The notes under the pieces were generated by a model that saw nothing but the letters and a program-made list of their open reading frames with translations, did no database searches and was not told the origin of the DNA. Made by a program: the position numbers and the translations under genes. Shown in pieces: positions 1-12,549 of a stretch of 12,549 bases of DNA (position 1 is the first letter of the stretch; each line of letters starts with the position of its first letter). The stretch lies in the IMG/VR virus record IMGVR_UViG_2585427728_000006, positions 1 to 12,549 of that record, one strand, 5' to 3'. Source of the stretch: a virus (taxonomy: Duplodnaviria > Heunggongvirae > Uroviricota > Caudoviricetes).

Positions 1-1362
1 ATGTTTAAACCGGAACTCCTTTCCCCGGCGGGAACGCTGAAAAATATGCGTTACGCTTTCGCTTATGGCGCAGATGCTGTTTATGCGGGCCAGCCGCGTT
101 ACTCCCTGCGTGTGCGCAACAACGAATTCAACCACGAAAATCTTCAGCTCGGCATCAATGAAGCCCACGCGCTGGGGAAAAAGTTTTATGTCGTGGTCAA
201 CATTGCACCGCACAACGCCAAGCTGAAAACCTTTATCCGTGACCTGAAACCGGTGGTGGAAATGGGGCCGGATGCGCTGATTATGTCCGATCCAGGGCTG
301 ATTATGCTGGTGCGTGAGCACTTCCCTGAAATGCCGATCCACCTCTCGGTGCAGGCTAACGCCGTAAACTGGGCGACGGTGAAATTCTGGCAGCAAATGG
401 GCCTGACCCGCGTGATCCTCTCTCGCGAGCTGTCGCTGGAAGAGATTGAAGAGATCCGCAATCAGGTGCCGGATATGGAGATCGAGATCTTCGTTCACGG
501 CGCACTGTGCATGGCCTACTCCGGTCGCTGCCTGCTCTCTGGCTATATCAACAAGCGCGATCCGAACCAGGGTACCTGCACCAACGCCTGCCGCTGGGAG
601 TACAACGTCCAGGAAGGGAAAGAAGATGACGTTGGCAACATCGTACACAAGTACGAGCCGATTCCGGTGCAAAATGTTGAGCCGACGCTGGGTATCGGCG
701 CGCCAACCGACAAAGTGTTTATGATCGAAGAAGCCCAGCGTCCGGGCGAGTATATGACCGCGTTTGAAGATGAGCACGGCACTTACATCATGAACTCGAA
801 AGATCTGCGCGCCATCGCCCATGTAGAACGCCTGACCAAAATGGGCGTGCATTCGCTGAAAATCGAAGGCCGTACTAAATCTTTCTACTATTGCGCACGC
901 ACCGCACAGGTTTACCGTAAAGCTATCGATGACGCCGCTGCGGGCAAACCGTTCGATACCAGCCTGCTGGAAACTCTGGAAGGTCTGGCGCATCGTGGCT
1001 ATACCGAAGGTTTCCTGCGTCGTCATACTCACGACGATTATCAGAACTACGAATACGGTTATTCAGTTTCTGACCGCCAGCAGTTTGTTGGTGAGTTTAC
1101 CGGTGAGCGCAAGGGGGACCTCGCGGCGGTAGCGGTGAAAAATAAATTCTCCGTTGGCGACAGCCTTGAGCTGATGACGCCGCAAGGCAACATTAACTTT
1201 ACCCTTGAGCACATGGAAAACGCCAAAGGTGAAGCGATGCCGGTCGCACCAGGCGATGGTTATACTGTGTGGCTCCCGGTCCCGCAGGATCTTGAGCTCA
1301 ATTACGCTCTGCTGATGCGTAATTTCTCCGGGGAAACCACGCGTAACCCACACGGTAAGTGA
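1..1362 (+). CDS. yegQ: U32-family peptidase-like protein YegQ (tRNA hydroxylation protein TrhP)
   Basis: Full-length 453-aa ORF starting MFKPELLSPAGT, matching recalled E. coli YegQ; stop TGA at 1360-1362; followed by cyaR as in E. coli. Confidence 0.9.
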   Translation: MFKPELLSPAGTLKNMRYAFAYGADAVYAGQPRYSLRVRNNEFNHENLQLGINEAHALGKKFYVVVNIAPHNAKLKTFIRDLKPVVEMGPDALIMSDPGLIMLVREHFPEMPIHLSVQANAVNWATVKFWQQMGLTRVILSRELSLEEIEEIRNQVPDMEIEIFVHGALCMAYSGRCLLSGYINKRDPNQGTCTNACRWEYNVQEGKEDDVGNIVHKYEPIPVQNVEPTLGIGAPTDKVFMIEEAQRPGEYMTAFEDEHGTYIMNSKDLRAIAHVERLTKMGVHSLKIEGRTKSFYYCARTAQVYRKAIDDAAAGKPFDTSLLETLEGLAHRGYTEGFLRRHTHDDYQNYEYGYSVSDRQQFVGEFTGERKGDLAAVAVKNKFSVGDSLELMTPQGNINFTLEHMENAKGEAMPVAPGDGYTVWLPVPQDLELNYALLMRNFSGETTRNPHGK

Positions 1363-1392
1363 TTAATTTCGATTATTTTTCCCGGATGGAAA

Positions 1393-1446
1393 ATTCTTAG
1401 AAACCGATCACATACAGCTGCATTTATTAAGGTTATCATCCGTTTC
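1393..1446 (+). promoter_or_regulatory. cyaR promoter region with putative CRP site (TTAGA-N6-TCACA, 1396-1411) and -10-like TATCAT (1434-1439)
   Basis: Half-site TCACA is perfect, left half-site is degenerate; spacing to the inferred cyaR 5' end fits a CRP-activated promoter. cyaR is known to be CRP-dependent. Exact positions not verified. Confidence 0.45.
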
Positions 1447-1533
1447 GCTGAAAAACATAACCCATAAAATGCTAGCTGTACCAGGAACCACCTCCTTAGC
1501 CTGTGTAATCTCCCTTACACGGGCTTATTTTTT
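1447..1533 (+). ncRNA. cyaR: Hfq-dependent small RNA CyaR (RyeE)
   Basis: Sequence GCTGAAAAACATAACCCATAAAATGCTAGCTGTACCAGGAACCACCTCCTTAGCCTGTGTAATCTCCCTTACACGGGCTTATTTTTT matches recalled cyaR; lies between yegQ and ogr as in E. coli K-12; ends in a U-tract. Confidence 0.85.
1507..1533. repeat. P2-type att core, left copy (prophage/chromosome junction next to ogr)
   Basis: 27-bp AATCTCCCTTACACGGGCTTATTTTTT, identical to 12046-12072; its reverse complement AAAAAATAAGCCCGTGTAAGGGAGATT matches the recalled P2 att core; overlaps the cyaR 3' end. Confidence 0.85.
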
Positions 1534-1595
1534 ACGTACAACAAATTGAAATAAAAGGATTTATTTCTGGTCACGTCCACACATTGACCACATCG

Positions 1596-1630
1596 ACAAA
1601 AAAGCCCCTCGACTGAGGGGCTTTCTGTTT
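1596..1630 (-). terminator. Rho-independent terminator downstream of ogr (hairpin usable on both strands)
   Basis: Stem GCCCCTC (1604-1610) / GAGGGGC (1615-1621) with 4-nt loop, flanked by an A-run upstream and T-rich run downstream, so a T-tract follows the hairpin on either strand. Confidence 0.55.
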
Positions 1631-1634
1631 GTAA

Positions 1635-1853
1635 TTACATCCACATAATTTGCTGCCCTGACGGCAAGGGGTGCGGCCTCACGGCGTGGACTTCTCCCGG
1701 CTTCACGATGTATCGCTGTACCGACTCATAAGTGATGAACGTGGCGCTGCAATTCACGTTCTGACACTGGTGATAACGCTCTTTTGTCGTGTCAGTGATA
1801 TAGCGACTTGTACGCGCATGTGCGGCATGCTGGCATAAAGGACAATGAAACAT
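1635..1853 (-). CDS. ogr: P2-type late gene transcriptional activator Ogr (zinc-finger)
   Basis: 72-aa product from ATG at 1853: MFHCPLCQHAAHARTSRYITDTTKERYHQCQNVNCSATFITYESVQRYIV..., matching recalled P2 Ogr/OgrK with the C-x2-C...C-x4-C zinc motif. The 93-aa ORF-track version is an upstream extension. Confidence 0.9.
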   Translation of the reverse strand: MFHCPLCQHAAHARTSRYITDTTKERYHQCQNVNCSATFITYESVQRYIVKPGEVHAVRPHPLPSGQQIMWM

Positions 1854-1934
1854 CGCGAGCACCTCTTCCGGTTTTGTTGATGGTGCCATTTTAGTTAATT
1901 TACCCTTATAAAACAAACAGATAAAAACAAAATA

Positions 1935-2189
1935 TTACTCATCACCTTCTGTTTCGTACTCCACATCAGAAAGCCTGACCTCAAGCTCTAAGGACGTCGT
2001 GAAGCCGCTGTTATTCAGAAAATGTGTCACTTTAGTGATTGTCCAGTCCTGCTCGTCTATGACGCGCTTAAAGCCTGACACTTTAACCGGTGTTTCCGTG
2101 TAAATATCTGCCCGACCAGTAGCCAGGCTGATGGAGAACTCCGCTACACCCCGTTGCAGCTTATCCCACTTCGCCTGAGCGGCACGCAT
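1935..2189 (-). pseudogene. C-terminal fragment of P2 gpD-like tail protein (yegZ-like remnant)
   Basis: 84-aa ORF ending ...TTSLELEVRLSDVEYETEGDE resembles the C-terminus of P2 gpD (about 387 aa in P2). Same frame stays open upstream to about 2312 with no plausible start, so the N-terminal roughly 70 percent of D is missing. Confidence 0.75.
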
Positions 2190-3135
2190 GGCCTGTGCTT
2201 TCGTGGCATATACCGTGGTCAGGGCAAAAACGTTATCAGCCTCACCGGCCAGATGGTATGAGCCACCGGTCAGCTTTACCGGTCTGGCAAAAAGCCTGCG
2301 TGCTGCCGTGCATCACAGCTCACCGATTTACGTCAAACGTAATATTCTGGCCTCGACATTTATCCCGCATCCGTGGCTTTCCCAGCAGGATTTCAGCCGC
2401 TTTGCGCTGGATTTTCTGGTGTTCGGTAATGCGTTTCTGGAAAAGCGTTACAGCACCACCGGTAAGGTCATCAGACTGGAACCCTCACCGGCAAAATATC
2501 CCCGCCGTGGCGTGGAGGAGAATGTTTACTGGTGGGTGCCGTCCTTCAACGAGCCGACACCTTTCGCGCCCGGCTCCGTGTTTCATCTGCTGGAGCCGGA
2601 TATTAATCAGGAGCTGTACGGCATGCCGGAATATCTCAGCGCCCTTAACTCTGCCTGGCTGAATGAGTCAGCCACGCTGTTCCGCCGCAAGTATTACGAA
2701 AACGGCGCACATGCCGGATACATCATGTACGTCACTGATGCCGTGCAGGATCGCAACGATATCGAAATGCTTCGCGAAAACATGGTCAAGTCGAAAGGCC
2801 GCAACAACTTTAAAAATCTGTTTCTCTATGCCCCGCAGGGAAAAGCCGACGGCATTAAAATTATCCCGCTCAGTGAAGTGGCAACGAAGGACGATTTTTT
2901 TAATATCAAAAAAGCCAGCGCCGCTGACCTGCTGGACGCGCACCGCATCCCCTTTCAGTTGATGGGCGGCAAGCCGGAGAACGTCGGGTCGCTGGGTGAT
3001 ATTGAGAAAGTGGCAAAGGTCTTTGTCCGCAATGAGCTTATCCCGTTACAGGACAGGATCCGCGAGATAAACGGCTGGCTCGGTCAGGAGGTCATCCGCT
3101 TTAAAAACTACTCACTGGACACTGACAACGGCTGA
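2188..3135 (+). pseudogene. N-terminally truncated P2-like portal protein gpQ
   Basis: ORF product resembles P2-family portal protein and ends next to cos, as Q does in P2. Frame opens only at 2179 and the first ~40 codons overlap the D fragment on the opposite strand, so the genuine Q part probably begins near 2314 and lacks its N-terminus (P2 Q is about 344 aa). No P gene or late promoter upstream. Confidence 0.75.
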
Positions 3136-3140
3136 ACATC

Positions 3141-3162
3141 GCCGCCTGCGGGCGGCTTTTTT
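3141..3162 (+). terminator. Rho-independent terminator after Q remnant
   Basis: GC hairpin GCCGCC-TGCG-GGCGGC (3141-3156) followed by TTTTTT (3157-3162), 5 nt after the Q stop codon. Confidence 0.6.
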
Positions 3163-3304
3163 ACACCCAGTCATCACGCCCTCACACGCTCACCACCGCA
3201 CAAAACAGCCCGCAGACACAGCAACGCCCCGGCGCAAAATCTAAACGCCGCCACGACGCGCTCAGACGCTGAAAAAATAAAATCAGCACCCCCGCCAGCG
3301 CGCA

Positions 3305-3323
3305 GTGCTTTCCCCGCCTCGCC
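3305..3323 (-). other. P2-type cos site (19-nt cohesive-end sequence)
   Basis: GTGCTTTCCCCGCCTCGCC is the reverse complement of GGCGAGGCGGGGAAAGCAC, the recalled P2 cohesive end; adjacent sequence toward Q also resembles the P2 left end. Confidence 0.75.
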
Positions 3324-3653
3324 CGCCCGCTTCATGGGGCGGTTTTGATGCAATACATGAGCATCGTAATGCCATATCGTGACAGGATTATAGAACATGA
3401 AGGTATACTAACTTACACATGCAAAAAAACGCACACTCAGGCATTCTCTTTGGAATACAATATGGTAAAAATATGATCATTTGAAGCTGCATATCCGTGC
3501 AGATTGAAATCAATGATGCTGCCCCTTCGTTAAGACAGCCAGGCCGCAATCTCTTGAGCTCAAGTGGACATCTAAGACAGAAAAACAATTTAAAGGCAAA
3601 GTTTTCGTAATGGTATCTTTGTCACAGCACACGCTAAAAAGGAACTAAACCTC

Positions 3654-4718
3654 ATGAGCACTCAGCAAGTCCTCAACATCCCTACAGCCGTATCGCAAGC
3701 GACCATCGAAAAATGGTTGAAAGGACTGGAACAGACAACGGAATTAGCCTTTTTTCGCCGTGTTGGCGGGCGGCATGGCTTCAATGTTACGAGCCGCTGG
3801 GCAAGTACATTGGATAACTTGAATAAAACTCTGAATGACCCATCGAAGCAAGGTACGCCTGCAAACTTTTCAAATCTCCGTTTGATTACGTTAAAAATAA
3901 TCACTAGCGTAAACCATTATTATTCAATTGATGGTATTAAATCAGGAACCATTAATTTAATACCAAATATAATCAACTACCCTCACCTCGATAAAACATT
4001 TAGCTCAGTATTTCCAATAAAACTTGATGATAATACAGGACTTCCTTCGACTCCTGGGCATTTCATTACTTCCATCGAAAAAATGGGGGATGGTATTGCT
4101 GTAATATATTCCTATATTATTTTAAGAAAAATCCAAGGAAGGAGTAAGCTACGTAGCAATCAATATCCAGAGCAGTACTTCAACACTGTTTTCATCCCTA
4201 ATGATTTAAGCCGTATAGAATATCGGGTTGATAAATCACTAGGTAAAAGAGCGTCTGAAAAAGCGATGGCAGATTTGCGCGCAAAATTTAATGAATTACT
4301 CGTGGAACTTAATATTAAGTTAGCTGTTGAAACTATAAATTTCTACAAAGCAATTTCCAATATTTACCTTGACAAACAATATGGAAGACTTGTTCAGGTT
4401 AATTTCCTTGATCCAAATGGAGATGAGGATGCTGTTCTTCGTTGCAGAACAGACCCCAATTATGATGCCCGTTATCGCGAGGTTGTATCTAAAACTCAGA
4501 ACGGAACACCTCGCTCATTGACCCTTGAAGTTTCTGGCGTTGCAGTGCGATTAGATAGTAAAGTTGCAAACGAAACAATTTCAAATGAAATTGGTTTTGA
4601 ACCCAGCAAAACTGATTGGTCTACAAACAAATTTTGTGGGGATTTTTATTTTACACAAACAGCAGATCATCAGGTGCATTATGGGGTGATAAATGATTTA
4701 CTCACAAGAGCGAAATAA
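3654..4718 (+). CDS. Hypothetical protein, cargo gene 1 of cos-proximal three-gene operon (354 aa, no recognisable family)
   Basis: ATG at 3654 with AAGGA about 10 nt upstream; long ORF in a strongly AT-rich block; first gene of a co-directional tightly packed trio. No Walker A, RT, TIR or Old-like motifs seen. Confidence 0.75.
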   Translation: MSTQQVLNIPTAVSQATIEKWLKGLEQTTELAFFRRVGGRHGFNVTSRWASTLDNLNKTLNDPSKQGTPANFSNLRLITLKIITSVNHYYSIDGIKSGTINLIPNIINYPHLDKTFSSVFPIKLDDNTGLPSTPGHFITSIEKMGDGIAVIYSYIILRKIQGRSKLRSNQYPEQYFNTVFIPNDLSRIEYRVDKSLGKRASEKAMADLRAKFNELLVELNIKLAVETINFYKAISNIYLDKQYGRLVQVNFLDPNGDEDAVLRCRTDPNYDARYREVVSKTQNGTPRSLTLEVSGVAVRLDSKVANETISNEIGFEPSKTDWSTNKFCGDFYFTQTADHQVHYGVINDLLTRAK

Positions 4719-5127
4719 AAAAATGCGCTCATTAGTGTATAAACAAAGAGTACTCCTGGAGAATGCCGGAAGCTCTTCTGTTTTCATAAATAATGATTCT
4801 CACATATATTATACAAATTTACTAGAATATGTAGAGGGTGATCTTGATCGTAATATTTATACAATCCCAGTATTACGAAAAGCCATAAAAACTGACAATT
4901 ATGAACATTTGCTACGAGTTGTTCAATTTTTTAGTAGCAATACCTCTTGTTTATTTAACGTTAAATATTGCTACGAACTAGAAAACATGGAGTTTGAGGA
5001 CATACAAGCTGATGAATATACCAACTATATATTAAACGGAGTTGAACCTGTAACTGCCAATGGTTCTGAAATTGAAGACTTCAATCCAAAATATCTTTCA
5101 TTTTATTGCATAATAAACCTGGATTGA
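4693..5127 (+). CDS. Hypothetical small acidic protein, cargo gene 2 (144 aa; alternative start at 4723 gives 134 aa)
   Basis: ATG at 4693 preceded by GGGGTG; overlaps gene 1 by 26 nt; stop TGA 5125-5127 lies 5 nt before the gene 3 ATG. Asp/Glu-rich, no recognisable motif. Confidence 0.6.
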   Translation: MIYSQERNKKMRSLVYKQRVLLENAGSSSVFINNDSHIYYTNLLEYVEGDLDRNIYTIPVLRKAIKTDNYEHLLRVVQFFSSNTSCLFNVKYCYELENMEFEDIQADEYTNYILNGVEPVTANGSEIEDFNPKYLSFYCIINLD

Positions 5128-5132
5128 CTGTC

Positions 5133-5981
5133 ATGAACAAACAACAAATCACATGTGAGTTAGGCAAAAGGGTTCATTTTGAAGATGAAGCGAGTTTTAT
5201 TGAAACATTATACTCGGATATAGAAGTCATAATAAAACTAATGGAGCAATCTAGTGACAAGTATTATTGTGATGATGAAGATAAACTAAGCCATACAATT
5301 GTAGCCTCTCTTGTACACCTAGGTTACGATGCAACCGAACAAACAAAAAAAAATGGAAGTGTGGACATAACCGTTCGTCCGAAAAATGGAGGATATACAT
5401 GGATTGCTGAAGCAAAAATCGGATACGGGAACCAAAAAATATTCGAGGGGCTACTTCAGTTGCTTACTCGCTATGTTAAAAGAGATAATCATGCAGGCAT
5501 GGTTATCTATTATCAAAAATCAAAGTCATCTTATCATTTCAAACAATGGCTGAAATACATATACAACCATGAGTGGAAGGATTATTGTACAAAGAAAGGG
5601 TCATTAAAAAAAGCGACTCCGCTACTTTCTCATTTAAAAAGTACGGTTTGTCCGAAAGTCAAACAAGGCTGTTGTTATGCTGACATTGATGTCATCCAAC
5701 CTTCGACTGATGGTCTAAAACTTCGCTGCTTCTATATTGACGTGCATCATGACCCAATTGACAGTAGTGGTTTAAAGAATAAGTCAATCGCCTTTGGTCA
5801 AGCCCAAAATAGAATTAGAGATTTATATCACTTATGGAAGACAGGACAGTTCGACGGCAGTATGATAGATGAATTATTTGAAGAAATAAAAATATATCAT
5901 AGCAATGAACTTGACGAAGAATATGAAGATGAAGATGAAGATGAAGATGAAGATGAAGATTCGAATATAAACTCAAAATGA
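5133..5981 (+). CDS. Hypothetical protein with PD-(D/E)xK nuclease-like signature and poly-(Glu-Asp) C-terminal tail, cargo gene 3
   Basis: ATG at 5133 (the ORF-track start at 5106 is TTG). Contains GSVDITV...(14 aa)...WIAEAKIG, i.e. D78 and E93-x-K95, a spacing typical of PD-(D/E)xK cores; C-terminus EYEDEDEDEDEDEDSNINSK. Confidence 0.7.
   Translation: MNKQQITCELGKRVHFEDEASFIETLYSDIEVIIKLMEQSSDKYYCDDEDKLSHTIVASLVHLGYDATEQTKKNGSVDITVRPKNGGYTWIAEAKIGYGNQKIFEGLLQLLTRYVKRDNHAGMVIYYQKSKSSYHFKQWLKYIYNHEWKDYCTKKGSLKKATPLLSHLKSTVCPKVKQGCCYADIDVIQPSTDGLKLRCFYIDVHHDPIDSSGLKNKSIAFGQAQNRIRDLYHLWKTGQFDGSMIDELFEEIKIYHSNELDEEYEDEDEDEDEDEDSNINSK
5925..5960 (+). repeat. Perfect hexanucleotide tandem repeat (GAAGAT)x6 inside gene 3
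   Basis: Six exact tandem copies of GAAGAT, in frame, encoding (Glu-Asp)6. Confidence 0.95.
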
Positions 5982-5994
5982 ACACCAAGAATCA

Positions 5995-6028
5995 CCCCAT
6001 TAAGTTTAGACATCCTAACTTGATGGGG
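5995..6028. terminator. Putative hairpin between convergent cargo gene 3 and A
   Basis: CCCCATTAAG (5995-6004) pairs with CTTGATGGGG (6019-6028) with one G-U position and a 14-nt loop; no strong T-tract on either strand, so function is uncertain. Confidence 0.3.
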
Positions 6029-6116
6029 AATTGACTTTTAAGTCTGTAACCCTAGCCATCAAAAATAGATTCATTTTAAATAAAAATATATCCGTTACGC
6101 CCCAAAAAAAATTGAA

Positions 6117-8387
6117 TTAATTAGGAAAAACACTCCCAGTTGGAATTTTTTTAAATTTATATTTCCTCCCATCGAAACATACTGTCGCACCGCGTGCTAA
6201 TACCTGTGGTTCCCATTGATTCGGCGTAATACCCTCCTGAGCCAACTCGAATCTTATACGTGGCGTCTGTTCCCGTTCAGCTTTTGTCATTCGTCCTGAG
6301 GGCGCTATCTGATAAGGTTTTAATGGCTCACAGCTCTTTTGCTGGCGATTTGGTCGTGGCGCATCGTGTTTTAGTGCGCATCTGAGCCCCGTCACGACTT
6401 CAGGGTCATCCCAGCCGATAACCCCGCGCTCAATCAGATTCAACACCGCTGCTGCTTGCTCAGAAGGTATGGATGTCATAGCAGGATCGCCACCGCTAGT
6501 TAGCTTTCCACAGTTATTGACAGGACTCCGAGGCGCGGCGATGCCGCTTTTTAAAGTCAAAGGCTCAACGACCGGCACTTTCGGAACAATGCGCCAGTCC
6601 GTCGTTCTGGTGATATGAATATGACGCGCGCCGAGATGCGGCGCGTAAATGCCGACCACTCTCTCGACTTCTTCCTCGTACTCGTTAACTTCATCCGACG
6701 GACTACGGGCAACCCTGACAGTCTGACAATCGCGCGGAACATTTGCCCCACCCTGCGCGCTGATATACAACGCAAAATCACCACTGTCTGCGGCAGCGCG
6801 TGCAGCCTCGACGCGTTCGTCAAACTCATCAGCAATGCTGACGCCGCGAGGCAATTTGCGTAGTTCACGGTAAGCCCCCATTGTCGGCAGGCCAACCGTT
6901 TTAAATTGCGGAATGCGCCACGTTGACGCCCATGCGGTAACAGCCGCGGCAGTGTCTTTCAGCGGCCTGCCGGTATCGTTATCGAGCTGACCATCCAGTG
7001 CATAGCCATCGATGTTTTTTGAGATGTATTTCGCGATATATCCCGCAGCACCGCCCCGGTTAAGGTGTTTTGCCTGAAAACGGTTTCGCGCGGCTCCTCT
7101 TTCGTCACCATCCTCTTTGAGCGCATAGCGACGCATGATTTCGATAATCTGGTTACGCTGGCGTGGATTACAAAAAAGCATCATATGCCAGTGCGGCGTT
7201 CCGTCGTGGTGTGGCTCGACGACTCGCAAACCGTAGACCTGTAAATCATTATCCTTGAATGCCGTGCGCATCAGGCTCCAGATGCGGCAGAGATAACGCT
7301 GCGCATCCTTTGGATTAAATGCCTCATCATTCCAGCCGTGATTTAGCTGGACGGTTTTACTTTCGCCTTTTCCGACCTGACGTGTCGGGTGATACTTTGA
7401 CGGCGCGGTCAGCGTGATAAACATCCCCACATCACCCTCTGCGGCGGCGTAACGCTCAATACCGGCGATGGTGTTCATCAGCTCCATCCGGCGAATTTCT
7501 GGATTAGAAATACTGCCCATCACCTTACTGATAAGGTCGATGCGCTCGCCGGTTTCCCTGTTTTCAAGGTCACACGATTTAAGAAATTCCAGATTTGCCT
7601 GGCGGCGCGCACACACATCACGAATGGCATGTTTACTGGCATAAGGAGAACGGTCTTTATTCACCTCCCCGACAGCAATCAGTAACGCCTCATGCCAGCG
7701 CATACGCTGGCCTTTAAGCTGACTAATCCACCACTCATCGTTAAACAGACGGGCAATGGCAGAATATGCCTGCCTCGTGGTCATCTGTCCTTTACGGTAT
7801 TTTTTCCAGTAGAGAGGGGAAATATTGAAAGCACGTGCAGCGCCAGCAACATGACCATACAGATGCGCCTGCGCCTCATCTGTAAACAGCGATTCTTTCT
7901 CGCCATGTGCATCAACCCATGCATCGCAGAGTTCCTCATACATCATGAAAAGCTGCGATGAGATACGGGCGGCAAACTTTTTCAGCTCCTTGTCATTCAT
8001 CCCCGGCAGACGCGCATAATGGTCACGCTCTGCCAGAAACAGCAACGACGCGTCGGTGTTCATTTCATGGCGCTGATTCACGCGCTCAATACGCGGCCAT
8101 AAACGGCGCTGAAAAGTGGATGTGAGGAAATAAAATCCGTGCACCGGGCTTTTATTGCGCCGGATGTAGTCATAGCGTGAAGTAAACAGCGAGCGCAAAA
8201 AGTAAGGCAGGCGATTAATCGTGGATAAAACACCTTGCACCTGACGCATCTCGTCACGTGTAAGGGGTCTTTCGCGCCCGACGGCCTCGCGTGGCGCGTT
8301 CCATGCATAAGCACCGGTAAACGTCTCACCGGTGCCTGCGGCAAATGCTGACGGAGGGACAAAACGCCCGGAGGCTTTAACGGCCAT
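6117..8387 (-). CDS. A: P2-type replication initiation protein gpA (rolling-circle HUH endonuclease)
   Basis: 756 aa from ATG at 8387 (MAVKASGRFVPP...), closely matching recalled P2 gpA, including the HWHMMLF (HUH) and YIAKYISK motifs. The ORF-track start at 8429 is TTG. Confidence 0.9.
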   Translation of the reverse strand: MAVKASGRFVPPSAFAAGTGETFTGAYAWNAPREAVGRERPLTRDEMRQVQGVLSTINRLPYFLRSLFTSRYDYIRRNKSPVHGFYFLTSTFQRRLWPRIERVNQRHEMNTDASLLFLAERDHYARLPGMNDKELKKFAARISSQLFMMYEELCDAWVDAHGEKESLFTDEAQAHLYGHVAGAARAFNISPLYWKKYRKGQMTTRQAYSAIARLFNDEWWISQLKGQRMRWHEALLIAVGEVNKDRSPYASKHAIRDVCARRQANLEFLKSCDLENRETGERIDLISKVMGSISNPEIRRMELMNTIAGIERYAAAEGDVGMFITLTAPSKYHPTRQVGKGESKTVQLNHGWNDEAFNPKDAQRYLCRIWSLMRTAFKDNDLQVYGLRVVEPHHDGTPHWHMMLFCNPRQRNQIIEIMRRYALKEDGDERGAARNRFQAKHLNRGGAAGYIAKYISKNIDGYALDGQLDNDTGRPLKDTAAAVTAWASTWRIPQFKTVGLPTMGAYRELRKLPRGVSIADEFDERVEAARAAADSGDFALYISAQGGANVPRDCQTVRVARSPSDEVNEYEEEVERVVGIYAPHLGARHIHITRTTDWRIVPKVPVVEPLTLKSGIAAPRSPVNNCGKLTSGGDPAMTSIPSEQAAAVLNLIERGVIGWDDPEVVTGLRCALKHDAPRPNRQQKSCEPLKPYQIAPSGRMTKAEREQTPRIRFELAQEGITPNQWEPQVLARGATVCFDGRKYKFKKIPTGSVFPN

Positions 8388-8652
8388 ATGAGCCAAAAGC
8401 CTCTGAACAACGCTTGCTGAGTTGCTCAACCTGCGCGTTTAAATCAGCAAAAGACTTTGCGCTTCCGGTCAGAATATCGTGATGCATCAGGCCGGAAACA
8501 AGCTGGCTTAATTTCGGATAATAACCAACCACCGCCAGCCATTCCTGACCGGCGTTTTTACCGCTTTCCGCTCTCTTTTTCTCGTGGAGAATAAACTGAA
8601 AGCTGTCACTGGTAACGACATAACGTTCGCCAATTTCAATACGAATACTCAT
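8377..8652 (-). CDS. P2 early-operon hypothetical protein (position of P2 orf83)
   Basis: 91-aa ORF; its ATG (8650-8652) overlaps the stop of the upstream gene, and its own stop overlaps the start of A; position between B and A as in P2. Confidence 0.7.
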   Translation of the reverse strand: MSIRIEIGERYVVTSDSFQFILHEKKRAESGKNAGQEWLAVVGYYPKLSQLVSGLMHHDILTGSAKSFADLNAQVEQLSKRCSEAFGSYGR

Positions 8653-8873
8653 GCCGTTCTCCGGTAATGTTTGTTTTTTGCTTCAAAGACTGACTGGCAG
8701 GAAACACAACGCGTGGCTGACGGATAAGCCGCACGACGGGCAGCAGGTATTGGCGCGTCACACTCTTCGCAAACCAGCGCAGAAGCACCGCAATGTTTTA
8801 CCCTTGCCGCGTTAATCTGACGCTCCAGTAATTCAGCCTGTTGTTCCTGAATAAAATCTACGTTGTCCGGCAT
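8649..8873 (-). CDS. TraR/DksA-family C4 zinc-finger protein (position of P2 orf82)
   Basis: 74-aa ORF with C-x2-C-x17-C-x2-C (CEECDAPIPAARRAAYPSATRCVSCQ); start overlaps the upstream stop (TAATG). Confidence 0.75.
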   Translation of the reverse strand: MPDNVDFIQEQQAELLERQINAARVKHCGASALVCEECDAPIPAARRAAYPSATRCVSCQSVFEAKNKHYRRTA

Positions 8874-9175
8874 TACCAGCTCCTTTTGTCGTTAAGTTTT
8901 TTAAATTCATCAGCGCAATAGCTGGCAATTTCTGTCGTTAATTTCGTCAGTTCATCCACGGAGGAGATTTGCTTGTGAAATACAGCGCGTTTAACAAGTA
9001 AATTGACCACATCAGACAGGAGATTTAATTCGTTCTGATAAATCGCGATAACAGACTCAGTTATTTCGCGTTTTTCTTTATCAAGACCAAGTTGAATAAG
9101 AGATAAATCGCCATTTTTCATAACGGTGATTTTTAAGGCGTTATTCAGTAATACAACTGAACGAGAACAGGACAT
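8873..9175 (-). CDS. P2 early-operon hypothetical protein (position of P2 orf81)
   Basis: 100 aa from ATG at 9175, which overlaps the stop of the upstream gene (TGATG); the 9178 start in the ORF track is TTG. Confidence 0.65.
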   Translation of the reverse strand: MSCSRSVVLLNNALKITVMKNGDLSLIQLGLDKEKREITESVIAIYQNELNLLSDVVNLLVKRAVFHKQISSVDELTKLTTEIASYCADEFKKLNDKRSW

Positions 9176-9399
9176 CAAAGCACCTCCCCGCGAGACAATC
9201 CGATATTGTGAAATTTTTCCGACTCCTGACTGAGCAGCTCGACTATCTCCACGCGGGATAACTCCGCCTTTGTGATGTGGCGAATCATGGCGTCAAGATG
9301 AGAAGAAAAGCGCGTCGCTGCGTCGGCCTGTGCTTCGGTTCTGGCCTGTTGCAGCAGTAATGCGTATTTACCGCACTGATTTTCAGAAACTGTATGCAT
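9175..9399 (-). CDS. P2 early-operon hypothetical protein (position of P2 orf80)
   Basis: 74 aa from ATG at 9399 (MHTVSEN...) with GGAGAAAG upstream; the longer ORF-track version starts at a TTG. Confidence 0.65.
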
Positions 9400-9462
9400 G
9401 ACTTTCTCCAGGCAAAAAGAAGCCCCGCACAATTAAGTGCGTTAAAAACTCTGGTTAATTAC

Positions 9463-9963
9463 TTAATGCAGATATTGCTCTGGTTTTACCGACGTCAGAA
9501 TTGTCGGTGCATACTCAAACAGGCTGAATAATTCACGTAATGCACGGAATAAAGCATCACGCCAGTAACATGATTCTTCATTAATTCGCCAGTATGGCTG
9601 GTTGAATTCTTTTTCAGTCAATCCGGCATGCATAAATAAAGTACGACGCTGACTGACTGTTAAAAAACTAATATATGCATACTCACTTGCGCCAACCTGA
9701 CGGCGTTTGGAGAATGCCCCACGCAATTCATCAATTGCACAAACCAGCCGTTCACGTTCGACGTCGTTCATTTCTTCAAAACGCATCGTTGCGTGACGCT
9801 GTTTTAACTGCGCATGGAAGCAAACCGTTAGCCGTTCGCGTTCCATCATCTGATTATAATAATCGCATGTCTCCTGCCAGCGAGGGACGGCCAGATGCTT
9901 ACCAATTATCCGGCGCATAGCTGCTGGCTGTTTTTCAACGAGATTGAGCGTCATCACTGTCAT
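9463..9963 (-). CDS. B: P2-type replication protein gpB (helicase-loader-like)
   Basis: 166 aa, MTVMTLNLVEKQPAAMRRIIGKHLAVPRWQ..., matching recalled P2 gpB over its whole length. Confidence 0.9.
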   Translation of the reverse strand: MTVMTLNLVEKQPAAMRRIIGKHLAVPRWQETCDYYNQMMERERLTVCFHAQLKQRHATMRFEEMNDVERERLVCAIDELRGAFSKRRQVGASEYAYISFLTVSQRRTLFMHAGLTEKEFNQPYWRINEESCYWRDALFRALRELFSLFEYAPTILTSVKPEQYLH

Positions 9964-10130
9964 TTCCAGACCCTCCGGCTTTTCAGAAAGGTCAGAGTCT
10001 TTTTTAACGGACTCTGTTTTTTGGTGCGGATAATGATTCCCTTACGCCCCTTACCGTGGGTGATGGTGAAGTCAATCGCCCTGGGGCTTTCGTTACGCAA
10101 TAACTGAGCAATACAACGAGGCTCATTCAT
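9960..10130 (-). CDS. Small hypothetical protein (position of P2 orf78)
   Basis: 56 aa from ATG at 10130 with a perfect AAGGAG upstream; the ORF-track start at 10154 is GTG. Confidence 0.6.
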   Translation of the reverse strand: MNEPRCIAQLLRNESPRAIDFTITHGKGRKGIIIRTKKQSPLKKTLTFLKSRRVWK

Positions 10131-10140
10131 ACGGTTCTCC

Positions 10141-10416
10141 TTAACGTGGTTCACCGAGACCTAACCACATCAACCAGCCGTCACGAATCTCTTTAGGACG
10201 GCTTTCATAAGCCAGTTTTAGTCCGTTATTCCATGCCGGAAGGTATACCCAATATTCACCAGCACGCCCCGATACTGACTGAGGGTCAGTAATCTCAATA
10301 ACTGGTAATTTCCCTTTCTCAATCATGCCCCTTACAGCTCTTGGAGTTTTACCAATGAGTTTTGCAAACTCCTGATAAGGCACGGCATCAGTCACGCTTA
10401 CAAGCTGTCTATTCAT
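10141..10416 (-). CDS. cox: P2-type Cox protein (excisionase / repressor of Pc)
   Basis: 91 aa, ...PYQEFAKLIGK...GRAGEYWVYLPAWNNGLKLAYESRPKEIRDGWLMWLGLGEPR, matching recalled P2 Cox; first gene of the leftward early operon. Confidence 0.9.
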   Translation of the reverse strand: MNRQLVSVTDAVPYQEFAKLIGKTPRAVRGMIEKGKLPVIEITDPQSVSGRAGEYWVYLPAWNNGLKLAYESRPKEIRDGWLMWLGLGEPR

Positions 10417-10537
10417 CTGCTACGATTCTCCCTTAGTGCTTCTAATGGCTCCTAATGGCTAATTATTGCCTAAAAGGATAACTCCAGAAGCACAACATTT
10501 CACACTATCAGCAAGAAATTACGCAATCGGAGTAATT
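10417..10537. promoter_or_regulatory. Divergent cox / C control region (Pe/Pc promoters and operator) with tandem 10-bp direct repeats
   Basis: Intergenic region between divergent cox and C; TCTAATGGCT / CCTAATGGCT tandem repeats at 10441-10460 are candidate C-repressor half-sites. Exact promoter elements not assigned. Confidence 0.6.
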
Positions 10538-10837
10538 ATGTCAATAGACGTTTCGGAGAAGTTGAAGCTAATCCGTGAATCTGAAAGGTTAAACCGTAAA
10601 GAATTCAGTGAATTAACTGGTGTAGCCTACAGCTCACTTTCGAGCTATGAGAGCCGGTCAAAAAACGCTGGAGTTGAAGCCATAATGAAGGTCTTACAAC
10701 ATCCCAGATTTACTAAATATACTTTGTGGTTCATGACTGATCAGGTAGCTCCAGAAGCCGGGCAAATTGCGCCCGCTCTCGCACACTTTGGGCAAAACGA
10801 AACAACGTCGCCCCACTCCGGTCAAAAGACTGGTTAA
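10538..10837 (+). CDS. C: P2-type immunity repressor C
   Basis: 99 aa from ATG at 10538; C-terminal half ...FTKYTLWFMTDQVAPEAGQIAPALAHFGQNETTSPHSGQKTG matches recalled P2 C; N-terminal DNA-binding part looks divergent from P2. Confidence 0.85.
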   Translation: MSIDVSEKLKLIRESERLNRKEFSELTGVAYSSLSSYESRSKNAGVEAIMKVLQHPRFTKYTLWFMTDQVAPEAGQIAPALAHFGQNETTSPHSGQKTG

Positions 10838-10952
10838 CAATTTATCGTGAATATATTCATCACAAGTGCCTACTATTGGTGGCTAAATTTCAGCCACCAC
10901 GAAAAAAGCGATTAGTAGTAGCAAAAAAAAGTACCACTCGGAGGGTTTTCTG

Positions 10953-11966
10953 ATGGCAATCAAAAAACTCGATGATGGTCGATATGAAGTGGACATCCGC
11001 CCTACTGGACGTAACGGAAAACGCATCCGTAGGAAGTTTGATAAGAAAAGCGAAGCTGTCGCTTTCGAAAAATACACGTTGTACAACCACCACAATAAAG
11101 AATGGCTATCAAAACCAACAGACAAACGACGTCTGTCGGAACTGACACAGATCTGGTGGGATTTAAAGGGTAAACACGAAGAGCATGGGAAATCTAATCT
11201 TGGAAAAATTGAAATCTTCACAAAAATAACGAATGACCCATGCGCATTTCAAATCACGAAATCCCTTATCAGCCAGTACTGCGCCACCCGAAGAAGTCAG
11301 GGTATTAAACCTTCGAGTATCAATCGTGATTTAACATGTATTAGCGGCATGTTTACAGCCCTGATTGAAGCGGAGTTATTCTTTGGTGAGCACCCTATCA
11401 GAGGGACAAAGAGGCTTAAGGAGGAAAAACCAGAAACAGGCTATCTCACACAGGAAGAAATTGCCTTACTGCTTGCAGCACTTGACGGCGACAACAAAAA
11501 GATTGCGATTCTTTGCCTGAGTACAGGAGCACGTTGGGGAGAAGCAGCTCGTTTAAAAGCAGAAAATATCATCCATAACCGCGTCACGTTTGTTAAAACG
11601 AAAACAAACAAACCACGCACCGTCCCGATCTCAGAGGCTGTTGCCAAAATGATCGCGGATAACAAACGAGGTTTTTTATTCCCTGATGCTGATTACCCTC
11701 GCTTCAGACGAACAATGAAAGCAATAAAACCGGATTTGCCAACGGGGCAAGCCACACATGCACTAAGGCACAGCTTTGCCACTCATTTCATGATTAATGG
11801 AGGAAGTATTATCACGCTACAACGGATACTAGGTCACACGCGGATTGAGCAAACTATGGTTTACGCTCATTTTGCGCCAGAGTACCTTCAGGACGCCATT
11901 TCTCTTAATCCGCTAAGAGGTGGTACTGAAGCCGAGAGTGTCCACACAGTGTCCACAGTAGAGTAA
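10953..11966 (+). CDS. int: P2-type integrase (tyrosine recombinase)
   Basis: 337 aa, GGAGGG SD upstream; C-terminal catalytic region HALRHSFATHF...LGHTRIEQTMVYAHF with the catalytic Tyr; downstream of C as in P2 and adjacent to the att core. Confidence 0.9.
   Translation: MAIKKLDDGRYEVDIRPTGRNGKRIRRKFDKKSEAVAFEKYTLYNHHNKEWLSKPTDKRRLSELTQIWWDLKGKHEEHGKSNLGKIEIFTKITNDPCAFQITKSLISQYCATRRSQGIKPSSINRDLTCISGMFTALIEAELFFGEHPIRGTKRLKEEKPETGYLTQEEIALLLAALDGDNKKIAILCLSTGARWGEAARLKAENIIHNRVTFVKTKTNKPRTVPISEAVAKMIADNKRGFLFPDADYPRFRRTMKAIKPDLPTGQATHALRHSFATHFMINGGSIITLQRILGHTRIEQTMVYAHFAPEYLQDAISLNPLRGGTEAESVHTVSTVE
11938..11957. repeat. Tandem direct repeats GTGTCCACA x2: putative Int arm-type binding sites
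   Basis: Two exact 9-bp copies 11 bp apart at the 3' end of int, about 90 bp from the att core; a related GTCCACACA occurs in the other arm at 1574-1583. Confidence 0.5.
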
Positions 11967-12045
11967 CGTTTAAGGGCTTTCAGTGGTAATTTATGCCGCT
12001 CAAACCCGCATTGTACCGTTGAAAGCCCCTACTGGTGACACCCTA

Positions 12046-12072
12046 AATCTCCCTTACACGGGCTTATTTTTT
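12046..12072. repeat. P2-type att core, right copy (prophage/chromosome junction next to int)
   Basis: 27-bp exact direct repeat of 1507-1533, followed by one extra T. Confidence 0.85.
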
Positions 12073-12136
12073 TATGCATAAGCCCTATCTCTGGTAACCG
12101 TCTTCCATTGACCACATCGATAGAATCCTCCTTCAT

Positions 12137-12169
12137 AGCACGATGCCTTTCACTTATCGGCATCGTGCT
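12137..12169. repeat. Perfect 11-bp inverted repeat (stem-loop) between att core and yegR
   Basis: AGCACGATGCC (12137-12147) and GGCATCGTGCT (12159-12169) with an 11-nt loop; no adjacent T-tract on either strand. Confidence 0.5.
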
Positions 12170-12231
12170 CCCACAGGTTCCGGCTACGCACAGCCAGAAC
12201 GCGCATATTTGACGCTTACCAAAAAATATTC

Positions 12232-12549
12232 TCACTCTCCACATTTGAATGTCAGACGAGCGACACCATGTAATCCTACACCTTCTGTCTTCAGCTCAAC
12301 TATTTGCATTTTTTTGCCCTGAGTAACACAGAAATGAGTTGCATCATTTTTTACTATATTTTCTGCACCAGATATTCTACCCCTGGCTAAAGAAGCTTCG
12401 GCTTCGGTGTAGTATTGGTTATCGAGTTTACGCTGAATATTACTTTTATATGCAAGACCAAATTTACCGATACTTGTCTCATCATTATGCACAGCACAAC
12501 CAGACATAATAAAAATACTAATTAATGATATAGCAGCTATCTTTTTCAT
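12232..12549 (-). CDS. yegR: Putative lipoprotein YegR
   Basis: Complete 105-aa ORF (start codon is the last 3 nt of the window) with signal peptide and lipobox (IFIMSGC); matches recalled E. coli YegR. Confidence 0.85.
   Translation of the reverse strand: MKKIAAISLISIFIMSGCAVHNDETSIGKFGLAYKSNIQRKLDNQYYTEAEASLARGRISGAENIVKNDATHFCVTQGKKMQIVELKTEGVGLHGVARLTFKCGE

Follow-up and report, generated by a model that had tools for sequence, protein, structure and literature searches.

A small acidic protein with a predicted winged-helix core belongs to a conserved three-gene cassette in the defense hotspot of a P2-like prophage of Escherichia coli

The interval between the gpQ and gpA genes of P2-like phages, the old-tin locus of P2, is the main defense hotspot of this phage group (PMC9122126; PMC13586616), and it also carries nondefense cargo, such as partition systems and toxins (PMC9122126). 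This work concerns a small acidic protein encoded in such a hotspot, within a 12,549-nucleotide (nt) stretch of viral DNA (IMG/VR record IMGVR_UViG_2585427728_000006, positions 1 to 12,549; referred to here as the window) that is a defective P2-like prophage of Escherichia coli. The gene of interest, gene 2, lies between gene 1, which encodes a larger basic protein, and gene 3, which encodes a nuclease-like protein; these three AT-rich cargo genes sit between the portal gene (gpQ) and gpA. The cassette is P2-hotspot system no. 145 of Rousset et al. 2022, where Table S5B lists it under the labels DUF5939 and DpnII-MboI with 14 occurrences and prints all three protein sequences; WP_024166900, WP_004016844, and WP_004016846 are listed among the P2 gpA-gpQ loci of the same work (PMC9122126). 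The entry is a catalogue line with HHpred labels, and it proposes no role for the 144-amino-acid (aa) product of gene 2. The cassette is a candidate system in which the combination of components is new.

Several described systems resemble parts of this locus. Rst_3HP ('hp + hp + hp', pFR109) is a validated P2-hotspot system that protects against phage P1; like the cassette, it consists of three genes, encodes proteins without clear domains, and occupies the same hotspot. The Rst_3HP proteins (∼337, 358, and 226 aa) differ in size from those of the cassette, and homology to Hp1, Hp2, and Hp3 was rejected (hmmsearch scores of ≤2.5 bits; blastp E values of ≥0.39). Kinship to the P4 RexA-like protein or to P2 Tin was likewise rejected, as neither showed similarity. 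For gene 1, the closest known proteins are lambda RexA and E. coli RdgC, which belong to the RdgC/RexA/Iml3/Chl4 fold class; this class was defined with the lambda RexA structure, and its members are nonspecific DNA-binding dimers (PMC11077077). For gene 3, the closest is the PADLOC defense candidate PDC-S54, a single larger protein with which it has a nuclease domain in common (residues 13 to 147 of gene 3 correspond to profile positions 230 to 369 of 410; E value, 2.8e-7). The match covers only the nuclease part of gene 3; genes 1 and 2 have no equivalent in PDC-S54, on which a search of the literature found nothing.

Gene 1 (positions 3,654 to 4,718, plus strand) encodes 354 aa with an isoelectric point (pI) of 9.1 and ends with TAA at 4,716 to 4,718. 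Gene 2 (4,693 to 5,127, plus strand) runs from ATG 4,693 to the TGA at 5,125 to 5,127 and is separated by the 5-nt spacer CTGTC (5,128 to 5,132) from gene 3 (5,133 to 5,981, plus strand; 282 aa). The first-pass annotation, made from the sequence alone, had placed the start of gene 2 within the end of gene 1, with an alternative ATG at 4,723 just past the gene 1 stop codon, and the stop of gene 2 at 5 nt ahead of gene 3. These coordinates were confirmed, with ATG 5,133 taken as the start of gene 3; the open reading frame (ORF) list gives TTG 5,106, and ATG 5,133 aligns with homologs and with the RefSeq start.

Both junctions of gene 2 are tight. In the window, genes 1 and 2 overlap by 26 nt in different frames, and across loci they overlap by 26, 23, or 20 nt or stand 1 to 2 nt apart. 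Genes 2 and 3 are separated by 2 to 5 nt or share 4, 8, or 23 nt, and this junction remains tight even where the proteins of a locus are only ∼25% identical. Judged from this arrangement, gene 2 appears to be translationally coupled to both neighbors. Because the coupling is conserved across very divergent homologs, co-expression, already suggested in the first-pass annotation, can soundly be inferred to take place as one operon; in addition, a pattern search found no terminator-like site on the plus strand between positions 3,654 and 5,981.

Gene 2 is almost certainly a real and obligatory member of a conserved three-gene module. At 31% GC, the chance of 144 stop-free codons is ∼6e-6. Codons 11 to 144, compared with an 88%-identical Enterobacter homolog, gave a nonsynonymous rate (dN) of 0.060, a synonymous rate (dS) of 1.10, and a dN/dS of 0.055, which points to purifying selection; this closer pair was used because dS was saturated relative to Serratia, Yersinia, and Citrobacter. 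An identical protein, WP_024166900, is annotated by RefSeq in two complete E. coli genomes. The 144-aa product has a pI of 4.74 and a net charge of ∼−8 (pI of 4.52 for a 134-aa form), in agreement with the earlier description of a small acidic protein. Its family forms 12 clusters in an index of 5.8 billion proteins. A profile scan of 1.84 billion sequences retrieved 24 representatives, all of 133 to 148 aa except two fragments, and none of the 24 was fused to another protein. The pI of family members ranges from 4.1 to 6.4 (median, 4.75), so that acidity is a conserved trait of the family. Gene 2 and 32 relatives gave no consistent match to Pfam, NCBIfam, PADLOC, or annotated PHROG families, and a profile search of PDB chains returned no sequence relative below an E value of 0.3.

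In the same closest loci, identity is 58 to 60% for gene 2 compared to 72 to 76% for gene 1 and 62 to 68% for gene 3. By this measure, gene 2 is the fastest evolving of the three proteins, somewhat ahead of its partners. Such a rate would be expected of a protein in contact with a changing phage factor, and gene 2 could on that account be the trigger sensor of the cassette, recognizing a phage or anti-defense protein and relaying the signal to the nuclease, with gene 1 as only a DNA tether. However, dN/dS is still low over the comparisons made (0.055 to 0.34), and the best-conserved motifs (VVQFF, KYCYE, and PV..G.EIEDF.P..LSFYC), including KYCYE and EIEDFNPKYLSFYC, span much of the protein. 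We therefore regard a role of gene 2 as trigger sensor as improbable.

The trio recurs as a unit. In every locus examined (>12 contexts, all in Gammaproteobacteria), genes for proteins of 338 to 369, 130 to 153, and 210 to 282 aa follow one another in this order, and the upstream member of each trio is a gene 1 family protein or a protein of the same size. Serratia, Enterobacter hormaechei, Yersinia, and Citrobacter carry the trio in P2 hotspots. In E. coli it also adjoins a lambdoid integrase, and in Photobacterium it adjoins the hsdR gene of a type I restriction system. Further copies are in a Providencia prophage, in an Enterobacter island that also holds a kinase, an insertion sequence (IS) element, and an AAA_15/AAA_21 ATPase pair, on a Pseudoalteromonas chromosome, and in a PM2-like Vibrio element. 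A distant version lies between Q and stx1A in Stx1a-converting phages, and trios that match in architecture and have a gene 3 homolog are present on an Acinetobacter contig and in Moraxella phage Mcat13. As is typical of defense systems, the cassette recurs in hotspots or islands and on mobile elements; at least five unrelated types of temperate phage, including lambdoid, Stx1a, and PM2-like prophages, carry it in accessory slots. Profile hidden Markov models (HMMs) recover all three proteins as far out as the Vibrio element, and genes 2 and 3 in the Stx1a phage. In the Acinetobacter and Moraxella trios, clear homology is confined to gene 3, whereas the middle protein resembles gene 2 in size and acidity but gives a weak profile match.

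Some of these loci were characterized individually. The trio of Enterobacter sp. ECC-019 (596 to 3,900 of the stretch examined) lies outside any P2 prophage, and its neighbors are a RamC_N/Pkinase protein, an IS transposase (rve), and an AAA_15/AAA_21 ATPase accompanied by a 225-aa protein. The ATPase and this partner look like a PARIS- or OLD-like pair, and the setting looks like a defense island. In the Stx1a-converting phage Stx1_499, the trio (350, 130, and 221 aa; 2,493 to 4,600 of the stretch examined) is annotated as three hypothetical proteins, with HMM matches for gene 2 (E value, 1e-9) and gene 3 (E value, 1.7e-41). The Stx1a-phage trio is present at ≥99% identity in 23 of 5,426 complete E. 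coli genomes, including O145:H28 Shiga toxin-producing E. coli. Moraxella phage Mcat13 (KR093637) carries three overlapping ORFs of 352, 153, and ∼210 aa (1,925 to 4,052 of the stretch examined) that GenBank leaves unannotated; the match of the gene 3 HMM has an E value of 1.2e-33.

To describe the fold of gene 2, an AlphaFold2 model was built on a 13-sequence alignment (mean predicted local distance difference test score, 88.7; predicted template modeling score, 0.79). The model contains helices at residues 2 to 24 (a long helix), 34 to 49, 58 to 65, 70 to 81, and 106 to 115; a beta hairpin formed by residues 88 to 95 and 101 to 104; and a last strand at 135 to 141. In this model, a helix-turn-helix is followed by a beta-hairpin wing, as in winged-helix proteins. 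Gene 2 is thus predicted to consist of a basic N-terminal helix (6 K/R residues), a winged-helix core, and a conserved C-terminal alpha/beta extension. Similar folds include the N-terminal domain of Fur/PerR, the extended winged helix of TFE/TFIIE-alpha, the winged-helix domain of Fic proteins, and Z-alpha, to all of which sequence identity is 7 to 15%. Relative to these domains, the basic N-terminal helix and the C-terminal extension are additions, the wing is acidic rather than basic, the recognition-helix position is hydrophobic, and there is no metal-binding or DNA-binding signature. A Foldseek search of the BFVD viral structures with gene 2 gave only weak, generic winged-helix matches.

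Because most of the fold matches are DNA-binding winged-helix proteins (Fur, PerR, Zur, TFE, ArsR, and GntR), gene 2 could be thought a winged-helix transcriptional autoregulator, that is, a DNA-binding repressor rather than a subunit of a complex. The basic N-terminal helix would suit such a function, and small regulators are present in many defense and toxin-antitoxin operons. On the other hand, the net charge of gene 2 is negative (∼−8) and acidity runs through the family. DNA-binding winged-helix regulators have a basic or polar recognition helix and wing; by composition, gene 2 has neither, as its wing (residues 96 to 104) contains 4 D/E and 0 K/R residues and its recognition-helix position is the conserved hydrophobic segment YEHLLRVVQFFS. 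An acidic wing and a hydrophobic, conserved recognition-helix position (VVQFF) argue against a classical DNA-binding winged helix. Gene 2 also lies in the middle of the operon, coupled on both sides, and is neither at the 5′ end nor divergently transcribed. An autoregulator is in our view very unlikely.

Searches of family libraries and a PDB profile search gave no sequence-level annotation for gene 1, and none of 24 family members matched the Pfam RdgC model at E values up to 10. By structure, gene 1 resembles the base and center domains of RdgC, and we infer that it is an RdgC/RexA-fold protein that serves as a DNA-binding or sensor subunit. Gene 3 was labeled DpnII-MboI by HHpred in Rousset et al. 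2022 (PMC9122126). Its residues E38, E49, D78, E93, A94, K95, and Q109 are invariant in 47 sequences with identities down to 26%; among them, D78, E93, and K95 bear out the nuclease-like character given in the first-pass annotation and fit the D...(D/E)xK catalytic core of PD-(D/E)xK nucleases. Matches below threshold were obtained to PDDEXK_9 (11 of 47 members), Mrr_cat (7 of 47), and AddB_N (6 of 47). A profile search of the PDB gave no sequence match for gene 3; among phage protein families, it matches phrog_9664 with an E value of 7e-74. Gene 3 thus probably carries an N-terminal PD-(D/E)xK nuclease domain and would be the effector of the cassette. PADLOC returned no match for gene 1 or gene 2.

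Beyond the nuclease domain, gene 3 has a conserved C-terminal region (P208, D210, and S212) and an acidic tail. The P208-x-D210-x-S212 motif, invariant and outside the nuclease core, is kept even in the short (210 to 221 aa) variants of gene 3. The tail contains a hexanucleotide repeat encoding 6 Glu-Asp units (5,925 to 5,960, plus strand), the length of which varies among strains: otherwise identical gene 3 proteins have 5 units in A23, 6 in the window, and 8 in ZH177, which suggests slippage-type length variation in the acidic tail.

With a candidate DNA sensor upstream and a candidate nuclease downstream, gene 2 most likely does not bind DNA itself and serves a three-part nuclease system as a regulatory or adaptor subunit. 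It would act through protein-protein contacts rather than through DNA binding. As a regulatory adaptor, it would bridge gene 1, as the DNA sensor, and the nuclease, and would keep the latter inactive. The trigger would come when gene 1 meets DNA that is foreign or abnormal (for example, DNA ends or intermediates of recombination or replication), upon which the nuclease would cut DNA. While a role as an adaptor or regulatory subunit is plausible in general terms, this specific mechanism is put forward tentatively. A mechanistically narrower version would have the ring or horseshoe of the RdgC-fold gene 1 protein survey DNA while gene 2 acts as a DNA-mimicking plug. Loading of the sensor onto phage DNA ends or recombination intermediates would displace gene 2 as a latch, and this displacement on phage DNA would license the nuclease; we consider such a latch unlikely.

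The first-pass annotation had also mentioned an inhibitor or antitoxin-like partner of the putative nuclease. As in type II toxin-antitoxin systems, gene 2 is small and acidic and lies directly upstream of, and tightly coupled to, a gene for a potentially harmful nuclease. It could accordingly block gene 3 stoichiometrically and be displaced or degraded on infection, in which case gene 1 would be an accessory. Somewhat faster evolution is common for antitoxins, and the acidic surface of gene 2 could mimic DNA in the nuclease cleft. Unlike toxin-antitoxin systems, however, the cassette always comprises three genes: no pair of genes 2 and 3 alone was found in the >12 contexts, in all of which the 338- to 369-aa gene lies upstream. 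Gene 2 also has no similarity to any antitoxin family, and its winged-helix core lacks the basic surface of typical type II antitoxin DNA-binding domains. Since no bicistronic form of the module was seen and gene 2 bears no mark of an antitoxin, nothing specific favors the antitoxin label, and an inhibitor of this type is somewhat unlikely. Of the earlier proposal, a co-expressed partner of the nuclease is reasonable, whereas the antitoxin-like part gained no specific support.

The three-gene module is probably an anti-phage system. The alternative is a nonimmune accessory module of prophages, such as an addiction module or one that assists recombination or replication, and gene 2 would be one of its subunits. 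RdgC is a recombination modulator (PMC11077077), the P2 hotspots are not reserved for defense genes (PMC9122126), and no experimental defense phenotype is on record for the cassette, all of which would fit such a module. The genomic evidence points the other way: the trio adjoins a type I restriction system in one locus and an AAA_15/21 ATPase pair with an IS element in another, it holds accessory positions in unrelated temperate phages, and the nuclease domain of gene 3 matches a PADLOC defense-candidate model. A nonimmune function is, on balance, quite unlikely. As a whole, the proposal that a mobile three-gene operon, most likely an anti-phage system, has gene 2 as its obligatory small subunit and regulatory adaptor is possible and falls short of probable.

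Several observations weigh against this proposal. The cassette is absent from the systems cloned and tested by Rousset et al. (Tables S2A and S2B; PMC9122126); our searches found no experiment on it and no paper citing its accession numbers, and the literature on PDC-S54, DUF5939, and RdgC-like defense systems yielded no description of it. There is no significant co-variation in net charge between gene 1 and gene 2 (Spearman rho, −0.46; P = 0.13; n = 12). The basic N-terminal helix of gene 2 might yet contact nucleic acid. In the most distant trios (Stx1a, Acinetobacter, and Moraxella), the counterparts of genes 1 and 2 show weak homology or none that could be detected: hhalign comparisons of the gene 1 and gene 2 profiles with the Acinetobacter and Stx1a counterparts were not significant, and the Moraxella counterpart of gene 2 aligned weakly (E value, 1e-4; probability, 57%). 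Lastly, both candidate ATGs of gene 2 and the Shine-Dalgarno-like motif overlap the conserved C terminus of gene 1 (..HYGVINDLLTRAK), and because the same bases encode that C terminus, their conservation is uninformative on the start of gene 2.

Two in-frame ATGs are available to gene 2, at 4,693 (144 aa) and at 4,723 (134 aa; 4 nt after the gene 1 stop). The Shine-Dalgarno-like sequence GGGGTG (4,683 to 4,688, plus strand) lies 4 nt upstream of ATG 4,693, within the end of gene 1. This motif and both ATGs are invariant in the P2-hotspot clade (GGGGTG in 5 P2-hotspot loci). GGGGTG also encodes a conserved Gly-Val of gene 1, and because the same bases serve both purposes, its conservation can be assigned to neither. 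The only locus that discriminates between the two starts is the distant one from Pseudoalteromonas, where an ATG lies 19 nt inside gene 1, the next 99 nt contain no ATG, and the long form is the one to which the N terminus of the protein (MSSLELEKLNEALDKQR) aligns. An internal Met is likewise missing from several other distant members of the family, and the first helix of the AlphaFold2 model opens at residue 2. Gene callers picked the shorter form in about one-third of the homolog clusters, all at 134 aa. We take ATG 4,693, and with it the 144-aa form, to be quite probably the true start; re-initiation at ATG 4,723 is possible.

The flanks of the cassette are those of a P2-like prophage. Genes identified there encode YegQ (Peptidase_U32), Ogr, the portal protein, gpA, DUF5405, Cox, a helix-turn-helix repressor, and an integrase, and GC content is 31 to 38% in the three cargo genes compared to ∼52% in the flanks. 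The left border of the hotspot is the 5′-truncated P2-type portal gene gpQ (2,188 to 3,135, plus strand; Pfam Phage_portal, E value of 5.8e-14), and the right border is the P2-type replication gene A, gpA (6,117 to 8,429, minus strand; Pfam Phage_GPA, E value of 2.2e-122), which RefSeq annotates as 'replication endonuclease' in A23. In the complete genomes of E. coli A23 and ZH177, the 2.7-kb cargo is present at 99.5 to 99.7% identity, again from the portal gene to the 'replication endonuclease' of a P2-like prophage, here inserted between yegQ and yegR. A terminator-like hairpin after the portal gene (3,141 to 3,156, plus strand; a GC-rich stem followed by a T run, by pattern match) separates that gene from the cargo. 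The only plus-strand promoter-like site found by consensus matching between the portal gene and gene 1 is a candidate sigma-70 promoter for the cargo operon (3,450 to 3,477, plus strand; TTGGAA-16-TATGAT, 9 of 12 consensus matches).

The match to the intact A23 portal gene begins only at window position 2,246, which is nt 147 of that gene, and it is on this basis that the packaging, head, lysis, and tail genes are considered missing. The prophage is a deletion remnant that nevertheless keeps an intact cargo and early region. On the minus strand, an 84-aa ORF abuts the portal gene, which lacks its first ∼146 nt (window positions 1,935 to 2,246); this ORF has no Pfam match, and it is probably a fragment of the gpD tail protein. 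Between the portal gene and gene 1 lie 518 nt of normal GC content (3,136 to 3,653; 49% GC) with two small minus-strand ORFs (3,174 to 3,398 and 3,388 to 3,588) and, on either strand, several terminator-like hairpins; given the organization of P2, this gap is presumably the cos region. The gene for the small RNA CyaR (RyeE) lies at 1,445 to 1,530 on the plus strand (Rfam, 100.7 bits), between yegQ and the prophage ogr gene, and the P2-like element is therefore inserted beside CyaR. The same Rfam scan of the window found no RNA family in the cargo. In the related prophage of ZH177, a SIR2-family gene and a PIN-domain gene lie beside the tail-fiber genes (256 to 2,562 of the stretch examined) and form a second cargo hotspot of the same element.

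Gene 2 represents an orphan family for which a confident fold model is now at hand, a gain that is modest but concrete. Because a distant version of the trio lies directly between Q and stx1A in Stx1a-converting phages of pathogenic E. coli, its expression and function may bear on the biology of Shiga toxin phages. Were the latch mechanism true, it would amount to a new sensing logic that joins the RexA/RdgC fold to nuclease-based defense. If the cassette does defend its host, it would constitute a new three-part, prophage-borne immune architecture composed of an RdgC/RexA-fold protein, an acidic winged-helix protein, and a PD-(D/E)xK nuclease. For decades it has been unclear how Rex works, and the cassette would then offer a second, more tractable case of the RdgC/RexA fold in phage exclusion.

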